NCBI GenBank assembly: GCA_002367275.1
Contig: DFBE01000039.1
Location: 25,390 to 85,995, forward strand
From: Dehalococcoidia bacterium UBA3088
GTDB taxonomy: Bacteria; Chloroflexota; Dehalococcoidia; UBA2247; UBA3088
Length of the DNA: 60,606 nucleotides
Direction: 5' to 3'
The notes under the pieces were generated by a model that was not told the DNA's origin, did no database searches, and saw only the letters and a list, made by a program, of their open reading frames with translations. Both the position numbers and the translations under genes were made by a program. Of this stretch, positions 44 to 60,582 are shown piece after piece (the first letter of the stretch is position 1; the number at the start of each line of letters is the position of its first letter).

Positions 44-115
44 TGGAGATAGGGGGACTTGAACCCCCGACCTCTTGCATGCGAGGCAAGCGCTCTCCCG
101 CTGAGCTATATCCCC
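44..115 (-). tRNA. tRNA-Ala(CGC)
   Basis: Reverse complement folds as a 72-nt cloverleaf. The acceptor is GGGGATA/TATCTCC with the G3:U70 Ala identity pair, the anticodon loop is CTCGCAT, and the T-arm is GGGGG-TTCAAGT-CCCCC. No CCA is encoded. Confidence 0.85.
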
Positions 116-7145: not shown

Positions 7146-7766
7146 CTAAGCTTTAAGATGGCAAGTATCGTTTATGAGCATTACCCTCAATCTTTCCCCC
7201 CTTACCTCCACGAGGTTTACAGCACAGGTGTACTGCTCTATCTGCCAGAAATGGGAGTTATCTATGCCCAAGATACCCAGGATGAGGACCTTGCACACCA
7301 TTTTGTGGGAGACAAGAACGATCGTTTCCTCTTCGTGCTGGAAAAGAAGGCCTCTCAGCGCCTCCATGACCCTTTCTCTTACCTTGTCCAGACTTTCCCC
7401 CTGGGGGAAGGTAACCTCATGGGGGTTTTGAAACCACCTTTGGTAAAGCTCAGGGTAAAGGCTAACTGCCTCCTCATGGGAAAGCCCCTGCCATTGGCCG
7501 AAGTCAAGGTCAATAAGACCTTCCAGGGGCTTGACCTTGAGCTTAAATGGAGAGGTCAGAATCTCTGCCGTCCTTAAGGCTCGCTTTAAGGGGCTGGAAT
7601 AGATTGCCTTTACCGGCCAGGAAGCTACCCTTTTTGCCGTAAGCTCAGCCTGCCTTATCCCCACATCATCCAGGTCGATATCTGCCCGACCCCGGAACTT
7701 TTCCCCTGCTTGCTCATTCCACCGGGTTTGCCCATGCCTTATCAGTAAGATCACTTTCTTGCTCAA
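7146..7766 (-). CDS. histidine phosphatase family protein (phosphoglycerate mutase / CobC-like)
   Basis: 206 aa with the catalytic LIRHGQTRWN (RHG) motif and a downstream SH..V block. It lies 2 nt from the NSS gene. Confidence 0.85.
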   Translation of the reverse strand: MSKKVILLIRHGQTRWNEQAGEKFRGRADIDLDDVGIRQAELTAKRVASWPVKAIYSSPLKRALRTAEILTSPFKLKVKPLEGLIDLDFGQWQGLSHEEAVSLYPELYQRWFQNPHEVTFPQGESLDKVRERVMEALRGLLFQHEEETIVLVSHKMVCKVLILGILGIDNSHFWQIEQYTCAVNLVEVRGERLRVMLINDTCHLKA

Positions 7767-8222
7767 TTATCCGTCTTTGAGAGACAAAGTATCAAGTAAG
7801 CTCGACCCTTATATTCTGCCCTGCCCCTTCATTCGGTTTGGGAAAGGGCTCCAGCATCTTGGGGTGTGTACTTGGTTGGTATCCACAGGCCGATTTGTCC
7901 TGGACATTGATAACGATCAAGACGGTACTCTCTAAGCATAGAGTATGATTACCCACTCCTCTCTATTTTACTTCAACCAAAATATTTTAAACGAAGTCTT
8001 CTATCTGGCCCTTCTGTCTGTGGTATACTTGTCCATATTGGGTAGCCTCTTCTGCTTAGAATTTAGGAGTTATCTCTCTTTCCTATTCTGCAAGAGTTGT
8101 CGCTCATCGGGGTCTATAGAAACTTCACCCACTTCCTCATTCTATCTCCACTATGGACTGTGTATCATGACATCGCTACTGTACAAGTACACTGGCATTG
8201 ACACTGTAAAAAGAGCTGGAGG

Positions 8223-9317
8223 ATGGTTGTTGTTATTGGGGGTGCTAACGGCGAGCACCTGTTGCGGGTGAATCCGGGTCACTTCCACCTGGGGGGTAAA
8301 TATATGGCGACCCCTCTGCCCATGATGGTGGGGGGGAGTGGGGTTAACTATGCCTGTCGTCTCTTAGCCATGGGTATTCCAGTGTTTCCCATTCTGCCAT
8401 TGGCCAATGATGATGTAGGGCAAATGGTAACCATCATGCTGGGAGCTGCGGCGAATGTGGGTAGCAGCGTTCTTGGCCTTGAGGATCTGTATATGAGGGG
8501 CAATAATTTAACTACCCCGTTTACCACTATCTTGGTCGTGGGTTCAGAGCGCACCATAATTAATGAATTTTCGACGAGCATCATTCAAGCCTTCTCTGAG
8601 CATTGGGAAAGGTGTCTTCATCATTTCCAGCGTACCAAGATGGCAGATGTGGTCATTATTGGCCACCTCCATGCCGATCGGTGCGACCCTCCTGGGCAGA
8701 GTGGGGGCATTTCAGAGAATATTATTTGCAGATTCCGTGCTCAGGGAGACAGCATATTCGTGAATTTCGGTGTCTCCCAGTACCGACTGGGGACCAACCG
8801 TTGGAGACATCTTTTGGACAAGGTAGAGTATTTTCAGCTTAACATCGATGAGATGAGGGAATTTGTAAGTGATGCCGGACTGGAAAGCATGGAGGACATA
8901 CTGGCTTGGTTCAGGGATAAGTGCACTGTAGCCATCACCATGGAGAGGATGGGTGCTGTTGCCCGCCTAAAAGGCTCAGATTCAGTGATACTGCTCTGGC
9001 CCTACGACCTGGGATTCGATGATATCCGAGACACAACCGGAGTAGGAGATGCATTCATGGCCGGTGTGGTGGCTCAAGCTCGGGAAACTCCCCTGGATAA
9101 CGATGACGCCCTGTGCCGGGTTCTGGAGAATGGAAGGCTCTGGGGAGCGTATGCCTGCACCACCCTGGGGGGAGCCAATGAATGCCCTACCCCCCCAGAA
9201 TTGGATGATTTCAGAAGTAGACATCGTCTACTTCTGGAGACTGAGTGTCGATCCCTGGATGAGGCTAAGCCTATGCTTCGGATCTTGGACCGCATCTTTC
9301 CCCAAACGGGAGCCTGA
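8223..9317 (+). CDS. PfkB-family carbohydrate/small-molecule kinase
   Basis: 364 aa. N-terminus is MVVVIGGAN, the C-terminus carries the PfkB signature TTGVGDAFMAG, and GGAGGA lies just upstream of the ATG. Confidence 0.8.
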   Translation: MVVVIGGANGEHLLRVNPGHFHLGGKYMATPLPMMVGGSGVNYACRLLAMGIPVFPILPLANDDVGQMVTIMLGAAANVGSSVLGLEDLYMRGNNLTTPFTTILVVGSERTIINEFSTSIIQAFSEHWERCLHHFQRTKMADVVIIGHLHADRCDPPGQSGGISENIICRFRAQGDSIFVNFGVSQYRLGTNRWRHLLDKVEYFQLNIDEMREFVSDAGLESMEDILAWFRDKCTVAITMERMGAVARLKGSDSVILLWPYDLGFDDIRDTTGVGDAFMAGVVAQARETPLDNDDALCRVLENGRLWGAYACTTLGGANECPTPPELDDFRSRHRLLLETECRSLDEAKPMLRILDRIFPQTGA

Positions 9318-9378
9318 TACAATCCTATGACAAAATCGCCTGGCCTTGTTAACACTCTGTTAACATTACTATGATATA

Positions 9379-10146
9379 ATGATTTACAGTAAAGTGAGGT
9401 TTGATCTTCATGTACATGCCAAGCTATCGAAACCCATCCCTTTCAGCATAGGCGATCTCGATCTCATGCTGGACCAGGCCCGAAGGAGAGGACTGGATGG
9501 CCTGGCCCTTACTGAGCATATCCACGCCCCTGAGTACTGGGAGATATATCAATCGCTCAGGAAGCGCTTTCCCTACCGAAAAGGGGTTTTCTACTTAAAC
9601 CCCCGCCTCTATCTTTTGAATGGGGCGGAAATTACTCTAAAGGATGGAGGCGACATCATCGCCCTGGGAGAGATGGAGGTACTAAGCTTCCTGGATAGAA
9701 CGTTAGGCCTAAGCCAGGGCTATCACCCCTCACTTCGTGAACTTTTGGATAAAAGCCCCCAGGATCTTTTGCTCACTGGAGCCCATCCCTTCCGGCCCAA
9801 CGGTGGGTTGATGAAGTATGCCCCCCGGGAACTCAAGCGTCTTTGTGCCCTGGAAATCAACGGCAGAGATTTTGGGCTGGAGGATCAAGTACGAAGAGCA
9901 GCCGGTGAGTTGGGGCTGCCCCTGGTGGGGGGAAGCGATGCTCATTTCTGGCCCCAGTTGGGAATCAGATCTACCCTTTTACCTCTCAGTAAGGTGGCTC
10001 TATCCGAGATCAAACATCTACTTCAGGAGGGAAAGGTGGAAGTAGAGTCCAGTGATGATGGTCCCCTGATGGTGGAGATATGCGCCCGGTATAAGCAAAA
10101 AGTGAAGGAAGCCCATGGGTTGACAAGGGCACCTGTAAGTCCGTAA
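9379..10146 (+). CDS. PHP-domain metal-dependent phosphoesterase
   Basis: 255 aa with the PHP His motifs DLHVHAKLS, LTEHIH and GGSDAHF. Confidence 0.8.
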   Translation: MIYSKVRFDLHVHAKLSKPIPFSIGDLDLMLDQARRRGLDGLALTEHIHAPEYWEIYQSLRKRFPYRKGVFYLNPRLYLLNGAEITLKDGGDIIALGEMEVLSFLDRTLGLSQGYHPSLRELLDKSPQDLLLTGAHPFRPNGGLMKYAPRELKRLCALEINGRDFGLEDQVRRAAGELGLPLVGGSDAHFWPQLGIRSTLLPLSKVALSEIKHLLQEGKVEVESSDDGPLMVEICARYKQKVKEAHGLTRAPVSP

Positions 10147-10174
10147 GATTGCTATAAAAGAAAGGAGGTATCTT

Positions 10175-10465
10175 ATGTCTGACAAAGAGGAGTTTGAGTA
10201 TTCGGAGAAGACGAGTTCAGAGGAGGCCGGTGATTACCTGATGGAGTTGGGTAGGGGGATTCGCGACCACTCTCTGAAGCTTCAGGGCAAGGGGAAAGCC
10301 ATAACCCTTTTACCCGAAGATGTGGTTAAGTTAGAGGTCAAAGCAGAGCGCAGGGAAGGCAAAGGGGAGTTGGAGATAGAAATATCCTGGAAAGAAAAGT
10401 ATGTTATCTCTGCCGAGAAGCTAAAGGTCAGTTCAGCAGAAGCAGAAGAATCCAGCTCTCCATAG
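10175..10465 (+). CDS. amphi-Trp domain protein
   Basis: 96 aa with a strong RBS (AAGGAGG). An amphipathic N-terminal region is followed by a Glu/Lys-rich core ending in GELEIEISWKE with the single Trp. This matches my recollection of TIGR04354. Confidence 0.65.
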   Translation: MSDKEEFEYSEKTSSEEAGDYLMELGRGIRDHSLKLQGKGKAITLLPEDVVKLEVKAERREGKGELEIEISWKEKYVISAEKLKVSSAEAEESSSP

Positions 10466-10471
10466 TAATGT

Positions 10472-12019
10472 GTGGTTGAAGAAGGCTTACAGAACATTCG
10501 TCGTGACCTCATAAGGATGGGCCGCCTGGGGTCCAGGCAATTGCGGGGTGCTTTGCGCGCTTTTGAAAAGCTGGATCTGATAGAGAGCGAGAAGATCATT
10601 GAGGGTGATGATGTGTTTGATGCTCTCAATCTTTCCATAGAAGAGAAGTCTTATGGGCTTGCCGGTAGAGAGTTTGAGGAAGAGGAGAAAAGGTTTCTCC
10701 GCTCTGCTGTCAAGGTAAGCTCAAACCTGGAGCGTGTCGGTGATGCGGCTTGTCATATTGCCCGCCGGGTAAGTATAGCTTACTGGGAAAAGGCAGAGTT
10801 TATCCCTTTTAACCTAGGAGAGATGGAATCCATCGCCCTGGCGGCCATAAAGGAATCTCTGGATGCTTACCTGCAAAAGGACCTCCAGCTTACCGAGAGG
10901 GCCTGCCTGCGTGAGCCACAGTTAGATGCCATCTACCAGGAGAAGCTCACCGGGCTTCGTCAGAAGATGAAAGAAGACCCTCAACACATCACTTGCCTTT
11001 TGTACTGGTATACGGTGATGAAGTATCTGGAGAAGATATGCGACCACACCCTTAACATTGGGGAGCAGGCTATATTCCTCATAACCGGAAGGAGGCTGAA
11101 ATTCTCTCAGTATCAGCAACTGGATCGTCTGGTATCTCCGGAGACTTCCCTTAAGTATAGCTTCTATCCCTACTACGACGGCATAAGTGGGGCGGTGGTA
11201 GCCCGAATGGACGATGGCCAGGGAATGGTATTGTACAAGGAGGGGAATAAGAAAAAGATTGCTGCTGAGGCAGATAAGCTTTTGGAGTGGCAAAAGGTAT
11301 CCCCTTCTCTTACCCCCAGGGTGATCACCACTACCATTCAGGGGGATAGGGAGACTCTGCTGCGAGAGTTTGTGGCGGGGGATCTCCTCTCTGATCTTTA
11401 CTTATCGGATGGGAATATCCAGGAAAAAGAGGAAGCCACCCGGATCCTCTTCACGGTAGTGGTCGAACTCTGGGGATTGACCCTGAAAGAGGAAAAGCCG
11501 GTCATAGATTACGTCGATCAGATTCGCTCCCGACTGGGAGAGGTGTATGCCATGCACCCTTACTTAGAATACTTAGCTGGTGAAGAAGGCCTGGACATTC
11601 TCCTTGATGCTGCTAAGGAGCGTGAGACTTCTCTTTCCCCCTCATTTTCAGTGTGGCTCCATGGTGATTTCAACATTAACAATGTTGTGTGCCATAAAGG
11701 GCAGGTGAGGTTTATCGATGTCCATCGCTCTCATTATGGTGACTATCTCACCGATGCAGGGGTGTTTATGGTGTCCACCGTTCGCCAGCCTCATCTGAGA
11801 GATAAGGTGTGTCAGGATATGGAGAGGGTGAGGAGCATGGTGATGGATGCCATAGGGAGCTTTGCTCGAGCCAGAAAAGATGAAAATTTCTCCTCGCGGC
11901 TCAACTTGAGTCTGGCTCGTTCTTACATCACCTCCTCTCGAGTGGTGGTAGATGAACCTCACGCCCGATGGCTATTTGAACAGGGTGTAAATCTACTTAA
12001 ATGGGGGGTAAGCTCATGA
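10472..12019 (+). CDS. PhoU-domain / aminoglycoside-phosphotransferase-fold kinase fusion protein
   Basis: 515 aa. There are two PhoU repeats (LERVGDAACHIARR, LEKICDHTLNIGEQ). The C-terminal kinase motifs are LHGDFNINNVV and FIDVHRSHYGDYLTD (APH/choline-kinase type). Confidence 0.75.
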   Translation: MVEEGLQNIRRDLIRMGRLGSRQLRGALRAFEKLDLIESEKIIEGDDVFDALNLSIEEKSYGLAGREFEEEEKRFLRSAVKVSSNLERVGDAACHIARRVSIAYWEKAEFIPFNLGEMESIALAAIKESLDAYLQKDLQLTERACLREPQLDAIYQEKLTGLRQKMKEDPQHITCLLYWYTVMKYLEKICDHTLNIGEQAIFLITGRRLKFSQYQQLDRLVSPETSLKYSFYPYYDGISGAVVARMDDGQGMVLYKEGNKKKIAAEADKLLEWQKVSPSLTPRVITTTIQGDRETLLREFVAGDLLSDLYLSDGNIQEKEEATRILFTVVVELWGLTLKEEKPVIDYVDQIRSRLGEVYAMHPYLEYLAGEEGLDILLDAAKERETSLSPSFSVWLHGDFNINNVVCHKGQVRFIDVHRSHYGDYLTDAGVFMVSTVRQPHLRDKVCQDMERVRSMVMDAIGSFARARKDENFSSRLNLSLARSYITSSRVVVDEPHARWLFEQGVNLLKWGVSS

Positions 12020-12912
12020 AGATATGGGTAGCCGGAATGCCTGGCGGCTGGTCCAGTAAGAGAATGACCTCTACTTTGAGTAAACTGAAGATAGAAAGCT
12101 TTCTTTTTCCTCTCTCTGAATGTACTCTCAACCTCAAAACTGGCATTGTCTCCTGGGAAGGGGAAGACTTATCCGGGCTTGATGGTATAGTGGTGCGAAA
12201 ACTGGGGGATTCTGTAGATCTCCTCACCCCTTTTCGAGTGAACCTGCTCCATCAGCTATCCTCCCGGGGAGTGAGAGTGTTTAGCTCTCCCCAGGCCATC
12301 GAGGAGGCCAACGACCGCTACCGCATGAGCCTTAAGCTGTCCCAGGCGGGAGTCCCCATCCCTGAGACAGTGGTCACAGAATCAGTAGATGAGGCTGCCC
12401 GTGTGGTAGAGCGGTGGGAAAAAGCAGTGCTCAAGCCCTTATTTACCTCCAAGGGAAGAGGTATGCTCCTGCTGGACAGCGAAGAAGCCTATAGGTTGAC
12501 CCTTAAACATTGGCAAGATGAACAAAAGTTTCCCTTCTACCTACAAAGGTATATTCCCGCCCGATATGATATCGGGGTAGCTTTGCTGGGAAAGCAGATA
12601 CTGGGGGCTTACCAGAGGGTAGCTCCCGACCATGATGCCTGGCAGACCACCATAAGGTCGGGGGGACACTATGAACCCTTCTCACCCAACTCAGAGGTGG
12701 CCGAGCTTGCCCGCAGGGCGGCTGATCCGTTCGGGCTGGACTTTACCGTGGTAGACATAGTTCCCTGTGGTGAAGAATACCTGGTATACGAAGTCAGCGC
12801 CTTTGGAGGATTCTCCGGGCTGTGGGCTTGCGGGATAGATGCTGCCTCCATTTATGCCAACTACATCCTGGTCCACCTTTCCATCCCTAGGGAAAGCCTT
12901 GCTCGAGCTTGA
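12016..12912 (+). CDS. ATP-grasp ligase, RimK/MptN-like
   Basis: The ATG at 12016 overlaps the upstream TGA (ATGA). Starts MKIWVAGMPGG, with ATP-grasp blocks KAVLKPLFTSKGRGMLLL and YLVYEVSAFGGFSGL. Confidence 0.8.
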   Translation: MKIWVAGMPGGWSSKRMTSTLSKLKIESFLFPLSECTLNLKTGIVSWEGEDLSGLDGIVVRKLGDSVDLLTPFRVNLLHQLSSRGVRVFSSPQAIEEANDRYRMSLKLSQAGVPIPETVVTESVDEAARVVERWEKAVLKPLFTSKGRGMLLLDSEEAYRLTLKHWQDEQKFPFYLQRYIPARYDIGVALLGKQILGAYQRVAPDHDAWQTTIRSGGHYEPFSPNSEVAELARRAADPFGLDFTVVDIVPCGEEYLVYEVSAFGGFSGLWACGIDAASIYANYILVHLSIPRESLARA

Positions 12913-13945
12913 AGAAATCCTGGACCGGTACCATCCTCAGGCTGAAATGCATGTTCAGCTTTTGGACATAGCCTTCACCATCCAGACCAATAGTAGAGAA
13001 CTAATCCTGAGGCTTAAGGATTACTTTTCCCTATGGGTGAGGGAGGGTGGGGAAGACAAAGGACACATCATTCATGCCTTCGAAGGTCAGGGTGTGATTG
13101 ATCAGGGAAGGCTTATTGATCTTCCTCGCTCGAGAGGAAGGTCGGTGAAGGAGGCCTACTACGATACTCCTGATGGGAGGGTGGCCCTGAAGAAAAGAAC
13201 CGGATTGGTTATCTATGTTAAGGGGAGGGAGCGTTATGTGGTGGGAGAGCTCATAAAAAACCTGAACCAGGTGATAAATCTGGTGAATGAGGTGTATATG
13301 GAGGATTTCATGAACCGGGGTTATATCCTCCTTCATGCCTCGGGGGTGGTGGGGAGCGATGGAGGGGGAGTGATTATTTCCTCTCCATCAGGAGTAGGGA
13401 AAAGCACGATGGCTCTGGCTCTACTGGAGAGAGGATTCAGGTTCTTAAGTAACGATAGAGTGCTGATTGATGCGAAGGGAGATAGTGTGGATATGGTGGG
13501 GGTTCCCAAAAAACCCCGGGTCAACCCGGGGACCATACTGGCCCTTTCCAGCCTACATTACCTGCTATCCCCCCAAGAACTCAAGTTCTACTCTTCCCTG
13601 GATGAGGAGGAATTGTGGTATCTGGAGCATAAGTTCGATGTGGATGTAGATGGTATCTACGGCCCAGGTACCTTCGTGCTGCGAGGAAGGCTAGAGGCAC
13701 TCTATCTACTGAATTGGAGCCGGTGGGAAGAAAAAGTAAGGGTAGAGCCTCTCGTGCCTTCAGAAGGTCTATCTCTCCTTCGGCCCCAAGTTTTAAGCTC
13801 TAACCTGTACCGAAGGGAGATCAAGAGCCCCCAGGAAGTAGAATCGGAGCTTAGTCGGTTATGTGAGCGGGTGAGAATGTATCGTGTCGAAGGTGGAGTG
13901 GATGCAGAAGAGCTTTCCCAGGTTATAGCCCAAAGGCGGGGGTAG
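12839..13945 (+). CDS. HprK-related P-loop kinase (HprK-related kinase B type)
   Basis: LLHASGVVGSDGGGVIISSPSGVGKSTMALALLERGFRFLSNDRVLI aligns with the HprK/P catalytic core. The start is uncertain: ATG 12839, ATG 12854 or TTG 12899. All three overlap the ATP-grasp gene. Confidence 0.75.
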   Translation: MLPPFMPTTSWSTFPSLGKALLELEEILDRYHPQAEMHVQLLDIAFTIQTNSRELILRLKDYFSLWVREGGEDKGHIIHAFEGQGVIDQGRLIDLPRSRGRSVKEAYYDTPDGRVALKKRTGLVIYVKGRERYVVGELIKNLNQVINLVNEVYMEDFMNRGYILLHASGVVGSDGGGVIISSPSGVGKSTMALALLERGFRFLSNDRVLIDAKGDSVDMVGVPKKPRVNPGTILALSSLHYLLSPQELKFYSSLDEEELWYLEHKFDVDVDGIYGPGTFVLRGRLEALYLLNWSRWEEKVRVEPLVPSEGLSLLRPQVLSSNLYRREIKSPQEVESELSRLCERVRMYRVEGGVDAEELSQVIAQRRG

Positions 13946-13972: not shown

Positions 13973-14575
13973 TTAGGTGAGGAGGTCGAGGAGCCCTGTC
14001 CCCAGATAGACTTCCAGGAAGCTACGGGGCAACCTTCCGGCAAAGGTCAAAAGCAAGAACTTAACTACTGAGAAGCGGGTACTTCCGAAGGCGATGGCCA
14101 TGAAGTCGAACACACCCAGGGGGAAAAAGGCTAGTGCTGGTATGGTGAGCAGTCCATAGCGTTTGATCCAATCTTCAACCTGCCTGAGGATGGGGGAGTC
14201 ATCCCTCGCGCCCATTATCCTTCGACCCCCGTATCCGGCAGCGTAGCCCGTAATCTCCCCCAGTGACCCACCAATGCTGGCGGCTATAGGAACCAGCCAT
14301 TTAAGGTCAGCAGTCTGGGCAATGCTTAGGGTTATGGCCAGCCCAACCGGACCGGAGAAGGGGATCACTATGACCGTGGAACTACACAGAAGGCATACCA
14401 GGAAGGCTCCCTGGTAACCATACTTGGTGAGTTCATCGGGCAGGGTGGAGGAAAGTAAATAGGCCATCCCCCCCGATATGGCCAACACCACAACGACTAA
14501 TATCACGAACTCACGCCTTCTCTCCTTTATGAGCCGGGTGAACTCTTGCCAGAGCTGGGCGATAAAATTCTGCAT
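13973..14575 (-). CDS. YqaA/DedA-like (VTT-domain) membrane protein
   Basis: 200-aa ORF with 4-5 hydrophobic segments and general resemblance to small DedA/YqaA proteins. Confidence 0.55.
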   Translation of the reverse strand: MQNFIAQLWQEFTRLIKERRREFVILVVVVLAISGGMAYLLSSTLPDELTKYGYQGAFLVCLLCSSTVIVIPFSGPVGLAITLSIAQTADLKWLVPIAASIGGSLGEITGYAAGYGGRRIMGARDDSPILRQVEDWIKRYGLLTIPALAFFPLGVFDFMAIAFGSTRFSVVKFLLLTFAGRLPRSFLEVYLGTGLLDLLT

Positions 14576-16236: not shown

Positions 16237-16507
16237 GGGCCGTGCACCCATTATCGACCCTCACCCTCAGGTTCTGTTCCTTTCCTCGACTCCAGCCAGG
16301 AAAGCCTGTATCACCCGGGGTCACCATTTACCGCTGCTCCCTTCCGGACCTGACGGAGTTCATAGCCTCCCGCCGCACAGGGCCCAACTATCAACATCGA
16401 GGTTTAAGGAAAAGCTACCCGGGGCAAAAAGCCTCAATAAGGAATTCCGCCCCGCTATAGCGGATTTCGGGTTCAGGGTACCGCTAGCTCCCCGCCTAGC
16501 ACGACCC
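16237..16507 (-). ncRNA. ffs: signal recognition particle RNA, long (Bacillus-type, Alu-domain-containing)
   Basis: The minus strand reads GGGUCGUGCUAGGCGGGGAGCUAGCGGUACCCUGAACCCGAAAUCCGCUAUAGCGGGGCGGAAUUCC, then GUCAGGUCCGGAAGGGAGCAGC, then GGGUGCACGGCCC. It has an Alu-domain 5' motif and the conserved S-domain motif. A 9-bp closing helix pairs the 5' GGGUCGUGC with the 3' GCACGGCCC. Confidence 0.85.
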
Positions 16508-16514
16508 ACGTAAA

Positions 16515-17348
16515 TTATACCAGACATCTTATCCTCTCTACCACCTCGTCTACTACCTCGGAAGGGGTGGAAGTGCCGGAGGCTACACCCACCCGAAAGT
16601 TCGAGGAAGGGCCAAGTTTCGAAACTCCGGGTGCGTTCTCTATGAACTGAAATGCTTTTCCCGCATCCAAACATATCCGGGCCAGATTTTGGGTGTTGGC
16701 AGAATTCCTTCCTCCCACGATAACCATCAGCTCCACTTTCAGGATAAGATGAGCTACCTCTTCTTGACGTCTTATTACCTCCGGGCAGATGGTGTTTACC
16801 GCTTGCAATTCTTTTAAGGAAGGAGCTAAGGGAAGGCTTAAGACAAAGCTCCAAAACGTGTTTGGCCGCTGTGTTGTCTGGGAAAGGCAAGCGATATGGC
16901 TTGTGTGGGATAAGAAGTCCTTAGCCTCCGAAGCGCAGGATGTGGCAATACCGTGATCTCCGGCATTCCCTAAAATCCCCTGAACCTCAGCATGCTTTTT
17001 ATCGCCAAAGATAATAACCCCGAAGTTTTGGTTGGCAAATTCGTGGGCAAGCTTCTGGGCTCTCCCTACGATGGGGCAGGTGGTATCCACTATCCGGAGG
17101 TTCCTCTTCTCTATTTGTTTATAGACCTCGGGAGGTTCACCGTGGGCCCGAATGGCTACTGCCTTCCCCTGAACCTCAGATAAATTATCCTGCTTTACTA
17201 TCCCCTTACCTTTTAGCCTCTTGGCTACTTCCGGGTTATGCACTGCGTCATGCAAGGTCTCAATGGGGGCCTCTTTCTCCAGTATACGAAGTGCCCTGGC
17301 TACACCGGTACAAAATCCGTAGGTCTTTACCCTCTCGACTTCTTTCAC
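16515..17348 (-). CDS. ispH: 4-hydroxy-3-methylbut-2-enyl diphosphate reductase
   Basis: 277 aa. N-terminus is YGFCTGVARAL, with conserved Cys and HNP motifs of the LytB family. Confidence 0.9.
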   Translation of the reverse strand: MKEVERVKTYGFCTGVARALRILEKEAPIETLHDAVHNPEVAKRLKGKGIVKQDNLSEVQGKAVAIRAHGEPPEVYKQIEKRNLRIVDTTCPIVGRAQKLAHEFANQNFGVIIFGDKKHAEVQGILGNAGDHGIATSCASEAKDFLSHTSHIACLSQTTQRPNTFWSFVLSLPLAPSLKELQAVNTICPEVIRRQEEVAHLILKVELMVIVGGRNSANTQNLARICLDAGKAFQFIENAPGVSKLGPSSNFRVGVASGTSTPSEVVDEVVERIRCLV

Positions 17349-30016: not shown

Positions 30017-30059
30017 CTAAGTGAGCAGGGATGGCTTAAGAGCAGGTAGATTGACAAAG

Positions 30060-31247
30060 ATGGCCAAGATTGTGGTGCAAAACTTAACCAAGATCTATGG
30101 GGATGAACCCCGGAAGGCGCTGGAGCTGCTAAGGGATGGCTATTCGAAGGAAGAAATCTTGACCAGGACAGGTCAAACGGTGGCTGTGGGTGGGATCAGC
30201 TTTGAGGTGAAGGAAGGCGAAACATTCATCCTCATGGGGCTTTCCGGAAGCGGGAAGTCAACCGTGATCCGCTGCATAAACAGATTGCTTGAGCCAACCA
30301 CTGGCTCAATCTGTGTTGATGGAAAGAGGGTGGAAGAGATGGACAAGAGGGAGCTGAGAGCATTCAGGGGCCAAAAGATAGGGATGGTCTTTCAGCAATT
30401 TGCCCTTTTCCCCCATAGAACAGTTCTGGATAACGTCGCCTTCGGATTGGAAACTAAGGGAGTCCCCAAGGGAGAAAGATATGAGAGGTCTGAAGAAATA
30501 TTGGTCAGAGTGGGCTTAGCTGGGTGGAAGGCTAAACGGCCGGATGAGCTCAGCGGGGGGATGAAGCAAAGGGTTGGCCTGGCCAGAGCGCTGGCGGTCG
30601 ACCCAGATATACTGCTGATGGATGAACCATTCAGCGCTTTAGACCCCCTGATAAGAAATGAGATGCAAGAGGAGCTCCTGAGCCTGCAACAGAGGATAAA
30701 GAAGACCATCATCTTTGTCACGCATGACCTGGGTGAAGGATTAAAGCTCGGGGATAGGATGGCCATCATGCGGGATGGAAGGATTGACCAGACAGGAACA
30801 GGTAAGGAGATTTTCTCCCATCCCGCAAATGACTACGTGGCGAAATTTGTGCAGAAGGTGGATGTGACCAGAATGCTCACAGCAGAGGAGATCATGATCC
30901 AGCCGGGTGAAATCTTAAACTTACTGGAAGGTCCACAGTTGGCGATAAGAAAGATGGAATTATGCGATACTGACTACATCTTCGTAATAGGGAGGGATAG
31001 GAAGCTAAAGGGGATTGTCTGGGTGAAAGACGCGCTAAAACTAGCGGAGAAGGGGGAAAAAGGAATTCAAGGGATCTTAAAGCAAGCGGATACAGTTCAT
31101 CCCACAACCTCTATTGAGGATATCTACCTCAGAATGGGAAGAACGGGGAGAAGTTTGGCTGTGGTGGATGGTGGTGGAAATTTTATGGGCGCAGTCACGG
31201 CCAGGAGCATCCTGTCGCTTTTAGCTGAGGGAAGGAAGGGCCCTTGA
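30060..31247 (+). CDS. proV: glycine betaine/proline-type ABC transporter ATP-binding protein with tandem CBS domains
   Basis: Contains Walker A (GLSGSGKST), the signature LSGGMKQRVGLARAL, and Walker B (LLMDEPFSALD), plus a C-terminal ~120-aa CBS pair. The start is taken at MAKIVVQNL. Confidence 0.9.
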   Translation: MAKIVVQNLTKIYGDEPRKALELLRDGYSKEEILTRTGQTVAVGGISFEVKEGETFILMGLSGSGKSTVIRCINRLLEPTTGSICVDGKRVEEMDKRELRAFRGQKIGMVFQQFALFPHRTVLDNVAFGLETKGVPKGERYERSEEILVRVGLAGWKAKRPDELSGGMKQRVGLARALAVDPDILLMDEPFSALDPLIRNEMQEELLSLQQRIKKTIIFVTHDLGEGLKLGDRMAIMRDGRIDQTGTGKEIFSHPANDYVAKFVQKVDVTRMLTAEEIMIQPGEILNLLEGPQLAIRKMELCDTDYIFVIGRDRKLKGIVWVKDALKLAEKGEKGIQGILKQADTVHPTTSIEDIYLRMGRTGRSLAVVDGGGNFMGAVTARSILSLLAEGRKGP

Positions 31248-31256
31248 TCCTTAGAC

Positions 31257-32132
31257 ATGCCAAAGATTCCGATTGGTGATGCCGTCAATTCCTTCATAAA
31301 CTTCCTGAAAGAAGACCTCTCATGGGTATTCGATGGCATTTCAGGGGTGCTTGACAATGCCATTTCTGCTTTAGAAAGCTTCCTGGATTTTATTCCTCCC
31401 ATCGCTCTCATCTTCCTGCTATGTTTTATAATCTTACTGGTAACCACCAAGGGGATAACTATATGGAGTTTTGTAGGCCTCCTTTTGATCTATGACCTGG
31501 AATTATGGTCGGAGTTGATAAGGATTTTGGTACTGGTCCTGGTGGCAGTAATTCTGGCGTTGATAATCAGCATTCCGGTGGGGATCTGGATGACGCGCAG
31601 CAAGACAGTAGAAAGAATTACATTTCCCATCCTGGATTTCATGCAGACAATGCCCTCCTTTGTTTATCTGGTTCCAGCAGCCATGCTGTTTGGAATCGGA
31701 CCAGTTCCTGGATTGCTGGCCACGCTGGTATTTGCCATCCCCCCTCCAGTCAGGTTGACCTACCTGGGTATAACCCAGGTTCCAGGGGACTTAAAGGAGG
31801 CAGCCAGAGCATTCGGGGCAAGTGATAGGCAGGTTTTAACCAAGGTTGAGCTTCCCCTTTCGCTCCCCAGCATAATGGCAGGCGTAAACCAATGTATCAT
31901 GCTGGGCATCTCCATGGTGGTTATTGCCTCGATGATCGGAGCACCTGGTTTAGGGCGGGTCGTTCTGACAGCAGTAAATAGGCTTGATATGGCCATGGGA
32001 TTTGAAGGAGGGCTGGCCATAGTGATACTGGCCATGATCCTCGACCGTTTCAGCCGAAAGATGGGTGAGTATGAGAAGATATTTGAGAGATTTGGTAAAA
32101 TAAAGCAAAAGTTGAAAGGAGTGGTACACTGA
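31257..32132 (+). CDS. proW: glycine betaine/proline-type ABC transporter permease
   Basis: 291-aa membrane protein with a BPD-type EAA-like loop (AARAFGASDRQVLTKVELPL). Confidence 0.9.
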   Translation: MPKIPIGDAVNSFINFLKEDLSWVFDGISGVLDNAISALESFLDFIPPIALIFLLCFIILLVTTKGITIWSFVGLLLIYDLELWSELIRILVLVLVAVILALIISIPVGIWMTRSKTVERITFPILDFMQTMPSFVYLVPAAMLFGIGPVPGLLATLVFAIPPPVRLTYLGITQVPGDLKEAARAFGASDRQVLTKVELPLSLPSIMAGVNQCIMLGISMVVIASMIGAPGLGRVVLTAVNRLDMAMGFEGGLAIVILAMILDRFSRKMGEYEKIFERFGKIKQKLKGVVH

Positions 32133-32998
32133 AGAAAATATTTGCCATCCTGATAAGTATCTTATTGCTTCCTGCTATCCTGGGCATATATGAGGAAGGG
32201 AAGGGGAAAAGGCCAACTGTAGAGCTGGTCTATGTGCAATGGGCCTGTGCTGAATCCCAAACACATGTTATGGAAGTGGTGCTTGAGGATATGGGATACG
32301 ATGTGGAGAAGGCTGTTGTGGCGGCAGCGGTTATGTGGACTGCCGTGGCTGAGGGAGATGCAGATGCCTTTGTATGTGGATGGCTCCCATATACGCATGA
32401 GGCCTATTGGGAAAAATATAAGGATGATGTGGTCAATTTAGGGCCATGCTATGAAGGGGCCAGGATTGGCCTGGTCATCCCCAGCTATGTGCCCATAGAC
32501 TCGATACAGGAGCTAAAGGATCATAAGAAAGAATTCGATGGCAGGATGATTGGCATAGAGCCGGGGGCGGGAATAATGAGGCATACAAAGGATGATGCCA
32601 TGCCCTTATATGGCCTTGAACATTGGGAGCTTGTGTCATCCAGCGGCCCTGCTATGGTGGCTCAGTTAGATAGATCGATAAGCAAAAATGAATGGGTTGT
32701 GGTCACCGGTTGGACCCCCCACTGGAAGTTCTTCAAATATGATCTGAAGTTTCTGGATGATCCTCAAGGGGCATATGGGGAAAGTGAACATATAGATGTG
32801 ATAGTTAGAAAAGGGTTCAGTAAAGACATGCCGGAGGTGGTGAATGTCCTGGAGAATTTTTACCTGACTGAAAGTCAGTTGGAAGAGGTGATGTACATGG
32901 TCAACGTAGAGGGAATGAAACCAGAGGAAGCCGCCAGAAAATGGGTGGATGAAAATCAAGATGTGGTGGATGGGTGGATGCAAAACGCCCATAGTTGA
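32129..32998 (+). CDS. proX: glycine betaine-type ABC transporter substrate-binding protein
   Basis: OpuAC-like mature domain (VQWACAESQTHVM..., GIEPGAGIM). The hydrophobic signal segment KKIFAILISILLLPAIL is encoded only if translation starts at CTG 32129 (AAAGGAG is 7 nt upstream). The ORF-track start is TTG 32165. Confidence 0.75.
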   Translation: MKKIFAILISILLLPAILGIYEEGKGKRPTVELVYVQWACAESQTHVMEVVLEDMGYDVEKAVVAAAVMWTAVAEGDADAFVCGWLPYTHEAYWEKYKDDVVNLGPCYEGARIGLVIPSYVPIDSIQELKDHKKEFDGRMIGIEPGAGIMRHTKDDAMPLYGLEHWELVSSSGPAMVAQLDRSISKNEWVVVTGWTPHWKFFKYDLKFLDDPQGAYGESEHIDVIVRKGFSKDMPEVVNVLENFYLTESQLEEVMYMVNVEGMKPEEAARKWVDENQDVVDGWMQNAHS

Positions 32999-33304
32999 CT
33001 TAATGCAGATAATCTTGTAATAAGATAAGGGGGGGTTTTACAGAAAATGAAAGGAGGCGCAAGCTTCAGGAAGGGTGGTCAGCTTGGCCTGCGAGGTGGC
33101 GAGATTGAAGCTGTCCTCTATGGGGATAGAGAGCAATCGCCTAACCCCAAAGATACCTTCAAATCTGGAAAGGAGGAACCTGATAGCTAGATTTTCTAAG
33201 GCTCAGGAGAGAATCCTGAGAGCAAAGTTGAGGCTAACCGCCAGGCTCCAGAGTTATCTTATTTTTTGGTTACCTTCTCACATTCGCTGGGAGACAATAC
33301 CTCC

Positions 33305-33333
33305 TTGACGTGAGTAAGTGTTTATAGTATCTT
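33305..33333 (+). promoter_or_regulatory. candidate sigma70-type promoter TTGACG-N17-TATCTT
   Basis: Read from the sequence. It would give a ~135-nt 5' UTR before the methyltransferase ATG at 33474. Confidence 0.35.
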
Positions 33334-33473
33334 CTCACAACAAAGCCCCATATTAGGGGAAAACTCCTGAGAACACCCGCTAATTGCCCTTCTTGGATCG
33401 GTCAGATCACCCCGTAAGAAATATTGTAGAGATGTTGTTTGCGGCTTTTGCCGTTTAACATGGGGAGGTTCAA

Positions 33474-34304
33474 ATGAAAGACAAAGTCCAGATAACTAAA
33501 GAGTACTATGATGGTATTGCCCATAGGATATACAGAGCAACCTGGGATAAAGATAACCATCATCTGGGCATATTCGATGGAGATACAAGTTTTTCACAGG
33601 CTTCGAACAAAGCAAACGAAAATCTCCTAGCCAGATTGGACATAAAAGGGAGTGCCAGGATATTGGATATAGGGAGCGGATTTGGAGGCTTACCGCGTTT
33701 CATAGCCAGAGCAAGCGGCACTCGGTGCCATATTGTGGGACTGAACCTCTCAGAGAGAGAAAATGAATATGCTAGGCATGAAAACAAACAGGCAGGGTTA
33801 GATGGTCTGATAGACATCACCTGTGGCGACTTCAACCGGCTGCCGTTCCAGAATGAATCTTTCAATACGATCGTAAGCCAGGATTCCATGCTTCACAGTT
33901 CGGATAAACAGGGACTTATCGGGGAATGCTCCAGAGTGCTGAAGAAGGAAGGCAAACTTGTATTCTCGGATATATTGAATACTGGATTGAATGGGGAAGA
34001 AGAAAAAATCGCCAACCACAGGGTAAATGCTCCCTATCTTGGTACATTTGAATTTTACAGGGATTATCTTATCCGAAGTCAACTGGAGGTCGAAGAAATT
34101 AGCGATTTAGGATGTTCAAACGTGGCGAGAACGTATGAAGCAGTCTGTAATAATCTGACGGAAAAGCGAGATCCTCTACAGTGTGAAGAGGGCATCCCGC
34201 CTGAAATAATAGACAAAACCTTAGAAGCATTGAAGTTTTGGGTACATAAAGCCCGGGAGGGGAAGATCGGCTGGGGGCTTTTCATGGCCAAGAAGAATGT
34301 ATAG
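33474..34304 (+). CDS. class I SAM-dependent methyltransferase, sarcosine/dimethylglycine N-methyltransferase-like
   Basis: 276 aa with an RBS (GGGGAGG). The N-terminal YYDGIAHRIYRATWDKDNHHLGIF resembles the YYDS..AD.FY..VWGGEDIHVGLY block of betaine-synthesis methyltransferases. Motif I is ILDIGSGFGG. Confidence 0.7.
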   Translation: MKDKVQITKEYYDGIAHRIYRATWDKDNHHLGIFDGDTSFSQASNKANENLLARLDIKGSARILDIGSGFGGLPRFIARASGTRCHIVGLNLSERENEYARHENKQAGLDGLIDITCGDFNRLPFQNESFNTIVSQDSMLHSSDKQGLIGECSRVLKKEGKLVFSDILNTGLNGEEEKIANHRVNAPYLGTFEFYRDYLIRSQLEVEEISDLGCSNVARTYEAVCNNLTEKRDPLQCEEGIPPEIIDKTLEALKFWVHKAREGKIGWGLFMAKKNV

Positions 34305-34312
34305 GAGGTGAT

Positions 34313-34993
34313 ATGAAAGATACAGAAACCAGGTGCAGAGACGAACAGGAAATTCTGGAGGGGCTCAAGCAGGCGGTTTTGAACTTTGAACCCGATGAAG
34401 CTGTAGAAATGGCCAAAAAAGCCATAGATGATGGAATAGACCCCAGCGAAGCTATAGAGAAGGGTGTAGGAAGGGCTTTGAGCATAGTGGGAAAGAAGTA
34501 TGAGGAGGGTGAGCTGTTTATAATCCATCTGGCAGCGGCTGGAGAAGCTGGTAGCAGGGCAATAAATGAAGTTCTTAAGCCTGAAATAGAAAAGAGGGGA
34601 GATAAAGCTCCTTCGAGGGGGAAGATTGTAATCGGCACTGTTTCGGGGGACATTCATGAAATAGGAAAGACTATTGTTAGTGCGATGTTGCTGGCTAACG
34701 GTTTTGAAGTCATCGACCTGGGTAAGGATGTTCCAGTTGATACATTCGTAGACAAAGTTAGACATGAGAGCCCCCATATACTTGGCTTATCTGCTTTGCT
34801 CAGTACCACTATTCCTATCCAAAGAGATGTTATTGAAGCTCTTAAAAAGGAAGGACTCAGAGATAAAGTGAAGGTAATGGTAGGAGGTGCTCCAGTTACT
34901 GACGAGTGGGCTAAAGAAATCGGAGCAGATGCATATGGTACAGATGCTATTGATGCCGTAAACAAGGCCAAAAGTTTGGTAGAAGCGAGTTAA
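34313..34993 (+). CDS. corrinoid (cobalamin-binding) methyl-carrier protein, MtgC/MttC-like
   Basis: 226 aa. A B12-binding-2 cap helix domain is followed by GTVSGDIHEIGK (DxHxxG), with SAL and GG motifs of the Rossmann B12 domain. Confidence 0.9.
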   Translation: MKDTETRCRDEQEILEGLKQAVLNFEPDEAVEMAKKAIDDGIDPSEAIEKGVGRALSIVGKKYEEGELFIIHLAAAGEAGSRAINEVLKPEIEKRGDKAPSRGKIVIGTVSGDIHEIGKTIVSAMLLANGFEVIDLGKDVPVDTFVDKVRHESPHILGLSALLSTTIPIQRDVIEALKKEGLRDKVKVMVGGAPVTDEWAKEIGADAYGTDAIDAVNKAKSLVEAS

Positions 34994-34995
34994 AA

Positions 34996-36477
34996 ATGTC
35001 GAATGTGGTAAACAGGGGTCCAAAGGGAAATCAGCTTCGATTACTTTCCAGGGAAGAGGTAGAAGCTGTCCATAATGCTGCTCTTGATGTTTTGAAAGAC
35101 ACGGGAATCGATTGTTACTCAGATAAAATTCTGGGAATATTTGAGGAGGCCGGTGCTGATGTCGATCGGGAAAAAAGAAGGGTAAGAATTCCCGAGCATT
35201 TGATCGATGAAGCTATAAACAAGGCTCCATCAAAAATACTATTCTGTGGCCGAGATTCCAAGAATGATATCTTGCTTGAGGGAAGCAGGGTATATTATGG
35301 ATTTGGCGGCACTCCTACACCTTTGATCCTGGATCATAGGACTGATGAGTTCAGGAGACCAGGCAAAAAAGATATGATTGAGACGACTTTGGTGGGGGAT
35401 GCACTGTCCAACATGGACTTCATGATGACAAATGCAGGGGTTTTTGATGTCCCTTATGAAGCTGAATACCTTCATGAATTTGAAATTTTGCTGAACTATA
35501 CCCAAAAACCAATTTTATATTCAGCTCCAAGTGCTTACCTGGCTGAAAAGTATCTTGAAATGGGAGCGATAGTGGCCGGGAGTTTAAAGGAACTGCAGAG
35601 AAGGCCCTTTATAGCCCTTTACACTGAACCTGCTTCCCCTTTAATGCTGACCAAATCTCAAGAAAATCTTATTGGATTTGCGAAGGCGAACATACCCATA
35701 GCTATTGCTCCCATGCCCCTTTCGGGGGGGACTGCACCAGGAACAGTTATGGGTAGCTGTGTTGTAGGGACCTCTGAGACCTTAGCTGCGATTACGCTCA
35801 TTCAACTGGTGAACCCCCATGCTCCGGTCATATATGGAGGGTGGGGGCTAACCATGGATCCCAGGAGTGGGATGTGTGCCTATGGCTCTCCAGAGTTCGC
35901 CATGGGAGCAAATGCCATAATGGCCCAGATGGCCAGGTTCTACAATTTGCCTTCGTATGGATTTGGGGGATGTGCAGACGGAAAGCTTCCTGGTCCGCAA
36001 TCTGGAGCAGAGGTAATGATGAATGCTCTGGTAGCTGGTCAATCAGGAGTAAATTTGATCCATGATTGTGGCTACCTGGCAGGAGGTATGGTTGGGTCAA
36101 TCGAACAGGCAGTAATAGCCAATGAGATTGTGGGAATGGCCAAGAGGATAATACAGGGAGTAAGGGTTGATGATGATCATCTGGCGGTAGATGTTATAAG
36201 AGAGGTTGGACCGGGAGGAAATTTTGTGACTCAGAAGCATACCAGAGAGCATGTAGGTGAATTTCTACTGTCAGAATTATTCGACAGGAATTCTTTTGGG
36301 ACGTGGCAAAGTGGAGGGGCAAAGGATACCAGAACCGTAGCCAAGGAGAGGATTGAAAAAATACTTAAACAACATAAGCCTGAGCCTCTAGGGCAAGAAA
36401 TTAGGGAGAGGCTCTCCGAAGTGGTAAAGGAAGGGGAAAGGGAGCTCACCACGAAGCAAAGGAAGGCGGAAGGATGA
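34996..36477 (+). CDS. MttB-superfamily methyltransferase, non-pyrrolysine (quaternary amine:corrinoid methyltransferase, MtgB-like), paralog 1
   Basis: 493 aa. The frame is uninterrupted with no in-frame TAG. The TIM-barrel MttB-like blocks are shared with the next gene. Confidence 0.85.
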   Translation: MSNVVNRGPKGNQLRLLSREEVEAVHNAALDVLKDTGIDCYSDKILGIFEEAGADVDREKRRVRIPEHLIDEAINKAPSKILFCGRDSKNDILLEGSRVYYGFGGTPTPLILDHRTDEFRRPGKKDMIETTLVGDALSNMDFMMTNAGVFDVPYEAEYLHEFEILLNYTQKPILYSAPSAYLAEKYLEMGAIVAGSLKELQRRPFIALYTEPASPLMLTKSQENLIGFAKANIPIAIAPMPLSGGTAPGTVMGSCVVGTSETLAAITLIQLVNPHAPVIYGGWGLTMDPRSGMCAYGSPEFAMGANAIMAQMARFYNLPSYGFGGCADGKLPGPQSGAEVMMNALVAGQSGVNLIHDCGYLAGGMVGSIEQAVIANEIVGMAKRIIQGVRVDDDHLAVDVIREVGPGGNFVTQKHTREHVGEFLLSELFDRNSFGTWQSGGAKDTRTVAKERIEKILKQHKPEPLGQEIRERLSEVVKEGERELTTKQRKAEG

Positions 36478-60500: not shown

Positions 60501-60572
60501 GCGGGAGTGGCTCAGCGGTAGAGCGTCTCCTTGCCAAGGAGAAGGTCACGAGTTCAAATCTCGTCTCCCGCT
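60501..60572 (+). tRNA. tRNA-Gly(GCC)
   Basis: GCGGGAG-TG-GCTC-AGCGGTA-GAGC-G-TCTCC-TTGCCAA-GGAGA-AGGTC-ACGAG-TTCAAAT-CTCGT-CTCCCGC-T. No CCA is encoded. Confidence 0.9.
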
Positions 60573-60582
60573 CTCGTTTCTC

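Follow-up and report, generated by a model that had tools for sequence, protein, structure and literature searches.

A six-gene kinase, phosphoesterase and ATP-grasp operon of a Dehalococcoidia bacterium and its place in the GAK system

What kind of system is encoded by a bacterial operon in which kinases, a phosphoesterase and an ATP-grasp ligase accompany a single acidic protein of 96 amino acids (aa)? Such an operon lies in a 60,606-nucleotide (nt) stretch of contig DFBE01000039.1 from Dehalococcoidia bacterium UBA3088, and this whole stretch is called the window below. A preliminary description, made from the DNA letters alone, had placed six co-directional genes here, with gaps of 61, 28 and 6 nt and two overlaps between them, and had related them to the GAK system of NCBIfam. 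All six open reading frames (ORFs) were confirmed on the plus strand at the coordinates it gave. The three gaps are as described, the ATGA overlap at 12016–12019 is present, and the second overlap, at the start of the HprK-related kinase B (HprK-B), has a size that depends on the start codon chosen. The genes are as follows.

8223..9317, plus strand: divergent PfkB-family sugar or nucleoside kinase (PF00294 and motifs)
9379..10146, plus strand: PHP-family metal-dependent phosphoesterase (PHP_C and motifs)
10175..10465, plus strand: acidic amphi-Trp protein of 96 aa (TIGR04354)
10472..12019, plus strand: PhoU (two repeats)::APH/protein-kinase-like kinase fusion (PF01895 and PF01636)
12016..12912, plus strand: ATP-grasp ligase of RimK/MptN type, in the type II sub-branch of the GAK clade (TIGR04356; alternative start at 12001)
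12839..13945, plus strand: HprK-B, a two-domain P-loop kinase (TIGR04355)

The operon is almost certainly a divergent form, called type II here, of the GAK system. Its identity as a GAK-type cassette was borne out, and the NCBIfam titles of TIGR04354–04358 agree exactly with the preliminary description. Two members of the triad score above the curated cutoffs and the third does not. The amphi-Trp protein reaches 65.2 bits with TIGR04354 (cutoff 31) and 42.5 bits with Pfam PF20068 (cutoff 27), and HprK-B reaches 252 bits with TIGR04355 (cutoff 200) over model positions 7–344 of 351. The ATP-grasp ligase is matched by TIGR04356 over its full length at 270.1 bits, below the cutoff of 300, with the next family some 105 bits lower. 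Six type II homologues that were tested score 239–289 bits with this model, all below its cutoff, in contrast to 405–447 bits for four tested homologues of types I and III. The shortfall of all six therefore marks a divergent sub-branch rather than a false assignment, and such ligases are likely to be under-annotated in the genomes of Chloroflexota and Rokubacteria. Searches of the literature for amphi-Trp, the GAK system, PF20068 and the TIGR accessions retrieved no function, in agreement with the earlier statement that no role had been assigned by experiment.

How far is this gene arrangement conserved? One genome per species was pattern-scanned, and an HprK-B relative was found in more than 598 genomes from many phyla; its homologues are numerous and consistently named across sources. 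Neighbourhood counts cover the best 80 of these loci, whose ORFs were searched with the window proteins. All neighbouring ORFs were also clustered, the recurrent clusters were annotated, and profiles were built from the loci. The four metagenome loci L081–L084 are additional to the 80 genome loci. HprK-B is present in all 80, the ATP-grasp ligase in 79, the amphi-Trp protein in 73 by profile search and the PhoU::APH kinase in 72. The order and strand of these four genes are kept in 72–79 of the 80 species-level loci, which across so many phyla puts the arrangement far beyond chance. The window has the identical order, with the ATP-grasp gene directly 5′ of HprK-B on the same strand and the amphi-Trp gene near by; the synteny in other genomes that the preliminary description had called for is thus found. 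The core occurs in Chloroflexota, Rokubacteria/Methylomirabilota, Bacillota and Actinomycetota metagenome-assembled genomes (MAGs), Desulfobacterota, Nitrospinota, Nitrospirae, Spirochaetia, Ignavibacteria, Zixibacteria, Planctomycetota and Proteobacteria. Three architectures can be distinguished around it.

Type I, 50 loci: [XXXCH] – 388-aa family – core – CofD-like – extra amphi-Trp paralogue
Type II, 10 loci, the window and L081–L084: PHP – one to three amphi-Trp genes – core
Type III, 4 loci: His_Phos_1 – calcineurin-like metallophosphoesterase – core, with a CofD-like gene in 3

Within type I, XXXCH (TIGR04358) was found in 27 and the CofD-like gene (TIGR04357) in 38 of the 50 loci. The type II branch, which comprises loci from Chloroflexota, Rokubacteria and a Bacillota MAG, has neither of these genes, nor that for the 388-aa family. 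This accords with the earlier observation that the CofD-like and XXXCH partners are missing from the operon, which we examined by running profiles from other loci against every ORF of the window. The CofD-like profile, built from 49 loci, matched none of them, and the CofD-like gene is missing from all 10 type II loci as well. The sole match of the XXXCH profile, at 14.6 bits, was that of the amphi-Trp protein to the N-terminus of XXXCH proteins, which is itself amphi-Trp-like.

The preliminary description had further held that the locus recruited the PhoU-kinase and the PHP protein in place of the missing partners. The comparison shows otherwise for both. The PhoU::kinase fusion occupies the same position in 72 of the 80 loci and is consequently a core gene of the system. 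The PHP gene, for its part, fills a conserved slot directly upstream of the amphi-Trp gene for which there are three alternatives: the slot holds the 388-aa family in 50 loci, PHP in 10 and a calcineurin-like metallophosphoesterase (Metallophos) in 4. These occupants are mutually exclusive, no two being found together, and PHP again fills the slot in L081–L084, as it does in the window at 9379–10146. A phosphoesterase thus seems to be obligatory in the GAK system with its fold interchangeable, provided that the 388-aa family has the role that its position suggests, and the alternation of mutually exclusive folds implies that phosphate is both added and removed. The window protein reaches 25.0 bits with PHP_C (PF13263, cutoff 21.3) and 21.2 bits with PHP (PF02811), below the cutoff of 26.4; its HVH and GGSDAH motifs are intact. 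Its closest solved chain is 7rty, named 'PsfC' (E = 5.5e-8), for which literature searches under 'PsfC' and '7RTY' gave nothing relevant, and weak matches to HisJ-type small-molecule phosphatases were also seen.

The 388-aa family itself, whose 50 loci fall within L013–L079 (for example L053, 5859–7025), has no sequence match in Pfam, NCBIfam or the PDB. It shows an invariant pattern HxH…H…E…H…H…DDxH, the invariant residues being H65, H67, E69, H97, E110, D112, H127, H275, E277, D288, D290, D330, D331 and H333. Homology to PHP was considered and is not established, given an hhalign E-value of 0.11 over 32 columns and a profile search of the PDB that found nothing; the His/Asp/Glu pattern is nevertheless suggestive. 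The family looks like an undescribed metal-dependent hydrolase standing in the place of PHP. A different PHP-containing protein, an approximately 800-aa fusion with PHP at the N-terminus of a GT4 glycosyltransferase, is encoded 6–8 kb upstream of HprK-B in 14 of the 80 loci; loci with this fusion include L001, L011, L019, L022–L024, L027, L030, L033, L063, L069 and L083, and some of them also carry UDP-glucose dehydrogenase and further GT4 genes.

The PhoU-kinase connects the system with phosphate. Its N-terminal 210 residues form a PhoU domain of two repeats (PF01895 88.5 bits, cutoff 23.5; PDB 1t72, E = 4e-21), followed by an APH domain (PF01636 29.6 bits, cutoff 23.2). The PhoU equivalog model TIGR02135 gives 121.5 bits, under its cutoff of 130.25, for a domain that makes up the N-terminal 40% of a 515-aa fusion. 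In the window, the gene for this fusion separates those for the amphi-Trp protein and the ATP-grasp ligase; its product reaches 514 bits with the locus-derived profile and has the residues conserved at 90% or more in 71 homologues, namely the PhoU acidic motifs, K256, E266, H397-G-D399, N404 and D416. In at least 12 of the 80 loci a pst-phoU (pstSCAB-phoU) operon directly adjoins the cassette, and in 11 it is co-directional with it. These loci belong to a Bacillota MAG, Rokubacteria, Dehalococcoidales, Spirochaetia, FCPU426 and Desulfobacterales, and the same adjacency is seen in L084 and L085. The count includes complete operon runs only, since a single ABC-permease profile proved unspecific and matched even the choline/betaine transporter of the window; a sample of the runs scored above the curated NCBIfam cutoffs for PstS, PstC, PstA and PhoU.

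In contrast to the PhoU-kinase, the PfkB gene is not a conserved member of the system. The protein itself belongs to the family by score (PF00294 35.9 bits, cutoff 25.8; GG and DTTGVGDAF motifs intact), and it is encoded within the operon as had been reported. A search with the window protein found it in none of the 80 genome loci, which rules it out as a conserved component. A PfkB gene belongs to the cassette in the window and in L081, a 77%-identical relative; one further PfkB relative, in the metagenome locus L086, has no PHP gene downstream. In sister Chloroflexota lineages a PGM/PMM gene overlaps the 3′ end of HprK-B instead. PfkB is accordingly a lineage-specific, variable sugar-phosphate accessory gene, and CofD-like/YvcK-type, PGM/PMM and PfkB proteins seem to alternate across the architectures. 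Because PfkB is shared only with the one close relative and PGM/PMM is found in the sisters, the cassette is more aptly seen as five core genes with a changeable sugar-phosphate enzyme than as a six-gene unit. In this analysis the GAK core is redefined by addition of the PhoU::kinase and the phosphoesterase slot, and three architectures are separated.

What chemistry could the two remaining enzymes perform? In HprK-B, the motifs SPSGVGKST and NDRVLI are present as quoted in the preliminary description, and the invariant residues include G185, G187, K188, S189, N205, D206 and R207. The protein is not an HPr kinase/phosphorylase by score, with 33.5 bits on TIGR00679 against a cutoff of 240. Its AlphaFold2 (AF2) model has a predicted local distance difference test (pLDDT) score of 90.4. 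HprK/P structures match this model through the C-terminal P-loop domain only. The ATP-grasp ligase retains the catalytic Lys and the Mg ligands, and among solved structures it comes closest to LysX, RimK and ArgX, each a ligase that acts on a small acidic protein. Against the models of related families it scores below cutoff throughout, with 165 bits for MptN (cutoff 350), 120 for rimK_fam (143), 87 for LysX (276), 59.6 for CofF (300) and 46 for RimK PRK10446 (331).

The amphi-Trp protein belongs to a family of 2,112 clusters at 50% identity, nearly all of them small and single-domain. Its AF2 model, based on 28 sequences, has a pLDDT of 84 and consists of a helix (residues 15–30) on a four-stranded β-meander, followed by a disordered tail; a Foldseek search of the PDB with this fold gave no match (best E = 1.8). 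W72 is invariant in 67 of 67 kinase-adjacent copies, and F7, L22, G28, P47 and K60 are conserved at about 90%. In types I and III the unstructured segment before the helix carries the strongly conserved motif F-x-[YFH]-[ED]-S-[LVIM]-Q-D, the place of which is taken by FEYSEK in the window. The C-terminal residue is Ser in 19 of 54 proteins of types I and III, against a background of 8%, and in 1 of 12 of type II. Two kinds of fusion join the domain to enzymes of the cassette. A metallophosphoesterase::amphi-Trp fusion occurs in L056 (5158–7077) and in P0271, the two being 44% identical and having both domains above the Pfam gathering scores. An HprK-B::amphi-Trp fusion is found in L077 (1013–2446), where the Amphi-Trp domain passes its gathering score and Hpr_kinase_C reaches 30.2 bits, below 33.3. 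Together with the amphi-Trp-like N-terminus of XXXCH, these fusions indicate that the enzymes associate physically with the amphi-Trp protein. In Dissulfuribacter thermophilus, one amphi-Trp protein ranks within the top 20 by abundance (PMC13490349).

The extra paralogues differ in their tails. Glu or Asp is the last residue in 31% of them, against a background of 8%, and this is not the case for the window protein. The idea that a fixed acidic C-terminus is extended in the manner of RimK/LysX was rejected, as amphi-Trp tails are not conserved and the Glu/Asp enrichment is restricted to these extra copies. In Desulfovibrionales-type loci the extra paralogues have long Lys/Ala/Pro-rich tails resembling those of histone H1, and others are strongly acidic; downstream paralogues were seen in L031, L040, L044, L046, L057, L061, L063, L065 and L074.

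Taking these observations together, we tentatively propose a phosphate-gated cycle of phosphorylation, dephosphorylation and glutamylation that takes place on, or together with, the amphi-Trp protein. The scheme is built on the observed gene content, synteny, catalytic motifs, fusions and pst linkage; the substrates and the direction of control given in it are proposals. The PhoU domain would sense phosphate status and control its fused kinase. The PhoU-kinase, HprK-B or both would then phosphorylate a serine of the amphi-Trp protein, with S10 in FEYSEK or S86/S87 and the Ser-rich tail as candidates, or else place phosphate on a group attached to that protein. The ATP-grasp ligase would join an amino acid, L-Glu being the most likely, to a carboxylate through an α-linkage, and the PHP protein would strip the phosphate and reset the cycle. 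PfkB in the window, like PGM/PMM or CofD-like proteins elsewhere, might supply or sense a ligand of the hexose-phosphate type.

Several lines of evidence lead to the amphi-Trp protein as the centre of such a cycle: the synteny of the core, the mutual exclusion of the phosphoesterases, the enzyme::amphi-Trp fusions, the N-terminal motif and the Ser-ending tails of types I and III. The catalytic motifs of the kinases, the ligase and PHP are intact, and gating by phosphate is suggested by the retained PhoU acidic motifs and by the pst operons that adjoin the cassette. [quoted passage not shown] Such HprK homologues phosphorylate or polyphosphorylate Ser of small peptides, and partner enzymes glycosylate that phosphate (PMC8498205, PMC13381572).

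A bolder form of the same idea would see in the amphi-Trp proteins a class of small acceptors or carriers that has so far gone unnoticed. Two unrelated kinases and an ATP-grasp ligase would build a phosphate adduct on them, the interchangeable phosphoesterases would strip it, and a PhoU domain would have control; the adduct might be a phospho-, polyphospho- or phosphoglycosyl-Ser, possibly capped with Glu. In this specific form we consider the idea unlikely.

A number of observations weigh against a cycle centred on the amphi-Trp protein. None of its possible acceptor residues is shared by all copies; the Ser of the N-terminal motif is absent from the type II copies of Rokubacteria, which have FEFARIAS, and the register differs in the window. 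Its C-terminal tails are hypervariable, whereas RimK and LysX require C-termini that are fixed. The best family of the ligase outside GAK, MptN, is one of small-molecule ligases. In the full-length Foldseek comparison of HprK-B the first structure is PEP (phosphoenolpyruvate) carboxykinase 1j3b (E = 5e-8, TMq 0.45–0.48), a small-molecule kinase, and APH-fold kinases, PfkB, PGM/PMM and CofD-like proteins are likewise mostly enzymes of small molecules. The fusions fit a scaffold or regulatory subunit as well as they fit a substrate. Lastly, the window itself has no pst operon near the cassette, the ABC transporter at 30–33 kb being one for choline or betaine.

Could the cassette then build or recycle a small molecule, the second option raised in the preliminary description? 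The product might be a metabolite or cofactor tail bearing phosphate and Glu, along the lines of a sugar-phosphate derivative or of the phospho-hydroxyacid-Glu tails found in F420 and methanopterin. The amphi-Trp protein would then be only a regulator, scaffold or carrier subunit, a reading that we regard as rather unlikely but serious. It would account for the PEP carboxykinase-like fold of HprK-B, which also gives a weak FomB match, and for a ligase nearest to MptN at 165 bits that matches CofF too. It would likewise fit the CofD-like gene in 38 of the 50 type I loci, the PfkB or PGM/PMM genes of type II and the His_Phos_1 gene of type III, the weak HisJ-type matches of PHP and the lack of a universal acceptor residue. 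What it leaves unexplained is that one to four amphi-Trp genes are always part of the operon, that they carry an N-terminal motif and that they are fused to the enzymes; moreover, the accessory sugar-phosphate enzymes change with the architecture and no type II locus has the CofD-like gene, so that no single route is conserved. The hypervariable tails allow another interpretation, in which the amphi-Trp protein is a RiPP-like precursor with a leader-like domain and a variable core, tailored by the ATP-grasp and HprK-like enzymes. Several tandem paralogues per locus, the known action of HprK-like kinases as RiPP tailoring enzymes (PMC8498205, PMC13381572) and weak matches of the ligase to ATP-grasp RiPP maturases (TIGR04187 43 bits, MvdC 29.6 bits) are compatible with it. 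We nonetheless hold peptide maturation to be very unlikely, for no protease, RiPP recognition element or exporter recurs in the 80 loci, the supposed leader is a stably folded domain of 70 residues (pLDDT 84), the ligase belongs to the RimK/MptN clade and not to that of the graspetides, and the abundance of the protein in Dissulfuribacter is atypical for a precursor (PMC13490349). An anti-phage defence or other conflict system based on nucleoside triphosphate-dependent enzymes was weighed too, in view of the multi-enzyme make-up and patchy distribution of the cassette and of a weak match of the PhoU-kinase to TCAD9, the ternary-complex-associated kinase-like domain (19.6 bits, cutoff 40). Such a role is scarcely credible: none of the six proteins has a PADLOC match at E ≤ 0.01, the flanks of the operon are housekeeping genes with no mobile-element signature next to it, and the recurrent neighbours of the system are pst operons and sugar enzymes rather than defence islands.

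The question matters beyond this one genome. The GAK cassette, a multi-enzyme and widespread system tied to phosphate uptake operons, is found in at least 598 species-level genomes of many phyla. The amphi-Trp-centred cycle makes definite predictions, in that candidate acceptor serines can be named, the fusions stand as evidence of partnership and a dependence on phosphate status is expected. If protein modification is correct, bacterial signalling would gain a new phosphate-responsive modification of a protein of novel fold; in the acceptor or carrier version it would be a new system for post-translational signalling or the buffering of phosphate, shared by hundreds of species and coupled to phosphate uptake by Pst. 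If instead the product is a metabolite, the cassette points to an unknown phosphorylated, glutamylated compound.

At the level of the DNA, the six genes form a discrete unit, as minus-strand genes lie on both sides of them. The flanking elements are as follows.

7146..7766, minus strand: His_Phos_1 (PspA/CobC-like histidine phosphatase), divergently transcribed neighbour
7767..8222, plus strand: divergent intergenic region of 456 nt, with a candidate extended −10 element, leader blocks and a Shine-Dalgarno sequence
13973–14575, minus strand: DedA/UptA-like gene, 3′ flank of the operon

The flanks hold housekeeping genes (ispE, rsmA, ispH, SRP RNA), and no mobile-element signature adjoins the operon. 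The ATG of PfkB at 8223 is preceded by GGAGG at a distance of 3 nt, and a strong AGGAGG Shine-Dalgarno sequence stands ahead of the amphi-Trp gene. For the ATP-grasp protein, the start at 12016 is supported by the TIGR04356 alignment, which begins at residue 2 of that form. The overlap of HprK-B with it would be 74 nt from the ATG at 12839, 59 nt from the ATG at 12854 or 14 nt from an in-frame TTG at 12899; the last is preceded by AGGGAA and yields a protein of 348 aa, the length found in relatives. The AF2 model shows residues 1–18 of the long form as disordered, and translation probably begins at 12854 or 12899.

At 8021–8029, some 195 nt ahead of the start of PfkB, stands TGGTATACT, a candidate extended −10 element. 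In an alignment, TGGTATACT and the leader blocks at about 8152–8203 are kept in the intergenic region of L081, where the element reads TGATATACT, and together they may represent the promoter of the operon and a leader that is structured or regulated. An Rfam search of the 456-nt intergenic region and leader gave no match, and scans for consensus promoters and terminators gave counts no better than those in shuffled sequence. The divergent His_Phos_1 neighbour is common to the window and L081. It scores 154.6 bits with the NCBIfam PspA model and 139.3 bits with CobC, both below cutoff, and was considered as a seventh component. Its general appearance is that of a generic PspA/CobC protein, and with the His_Phos_1 proteins of type III, whose genes are co-directional with the cassette, it shares only about 25% identity or cannot be aligned; it was therefore rejected as a component and is a weak candidate for an accessory gene.

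Elsewhere in the window, a bacterial large SRP RNA (RF01854, 155.7 bits, gathering 60) lies at 16240–16504 on the minus strand between rsmA-like and ispH-like genes, and the 'ORF' at 16360–16890 that overlaps it is probably spurious. A cluster on the plus strand at 30021–37916 resembles one for the uptake and demethylation of quaternary amines. The features of this cluster, and two tRNA genes at the ends of the window, are given here.

44–115, minus strand: tRNA-Ala(CGC), at one end of the window
30021–32998, plus strand: ProV/W/X-like choline/betaine ABC transporter
33474–34304, plus strand: S-adenosylmethionine (SAM) methyltransferase
34313–34993, plus strand: corrinoid protein (TIGR02370 224 bits, cutoff 215)
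34996–36477 and 36474–37916, plus strand: two MttB-family ORFs (TIGR02369 434 bits, below 525)
60501–60573, plus strand: tRNA-Gly(GCC), at the other end

Rfam PYLIS_3 was matched at 37440–37539 (40.6 bits against 38); as this lies inside an uninterrupted ORF, the MttB homologue is probably non-pyrrolysine. From about 19.9 kb to 60606 nearly all long ORFs lie on the plus strand, with a GC skew that stays positive throughout (+0.09 to +0.26), a pattern consistent with a single replichore of strong gene-strand bias.

How does the operon compare with systems that are already known? With MptN, CofF and CofD it shares MptN as the best family of its ligase outside GAK, and the type I relatives have a CofD-like transferase; it differs in that the ligase falls below the cutoffs of both MptN and CofF and the window has no CofD-like gene. 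Furthermore, GAK hosts are not methanogens, and their loci offer no context of Fo or pterin biosynthesis. The RimK–S6 and LysX/ArgX–LysW pairs supply the closest solved structures to the ligase and, as here, a small acidic protein encoded next door, and LysW pathways also have a kinase step. In contrast to these pairs, the GAK ligase scores far below the RimK and LysX cutoffs, the amphi-Trp protein is without the conserved C-terminal Glu that is needed, and GAK lacks the reductase and aminotransferase partners of the LysW pathways.

HprK/P and the lasso/LPP RiPP kinases have in common with HprK-B the P-loop and the N/D-D-R motif, and a small protein or peptide encoded next door could plausibly accept phosphate on Ser. 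The N-terminal domain and architecture of HprK-B are nearer to PEP carboxykinase, and the amphi-Trp protein is not HPr-like. Compared with PhoU of the PstSCAB system, the window fusion has a full two-repeat PhoU domain, and its relatives adjoin pst-phoU operons in the loci counted above; it differs in scoring just below the PhoU cutoff, in being fused to a kinase and in having no pst operon beside it. The nearest counterpart is the GAK system of TIGR04354–04358. The window departs from it in the absence of CofD-like and XXXCH genes, in the replacement of the 388-aa family by PHP, in the addition of PfkB and in an ATP-grasp ligase below the curated cutoff, like all type II homologues tested, but it shares with it the triad of amphi-Trp protein, ATP-grasp ligase and HprK-B in the canonical order, together with the PhoU::kinase.

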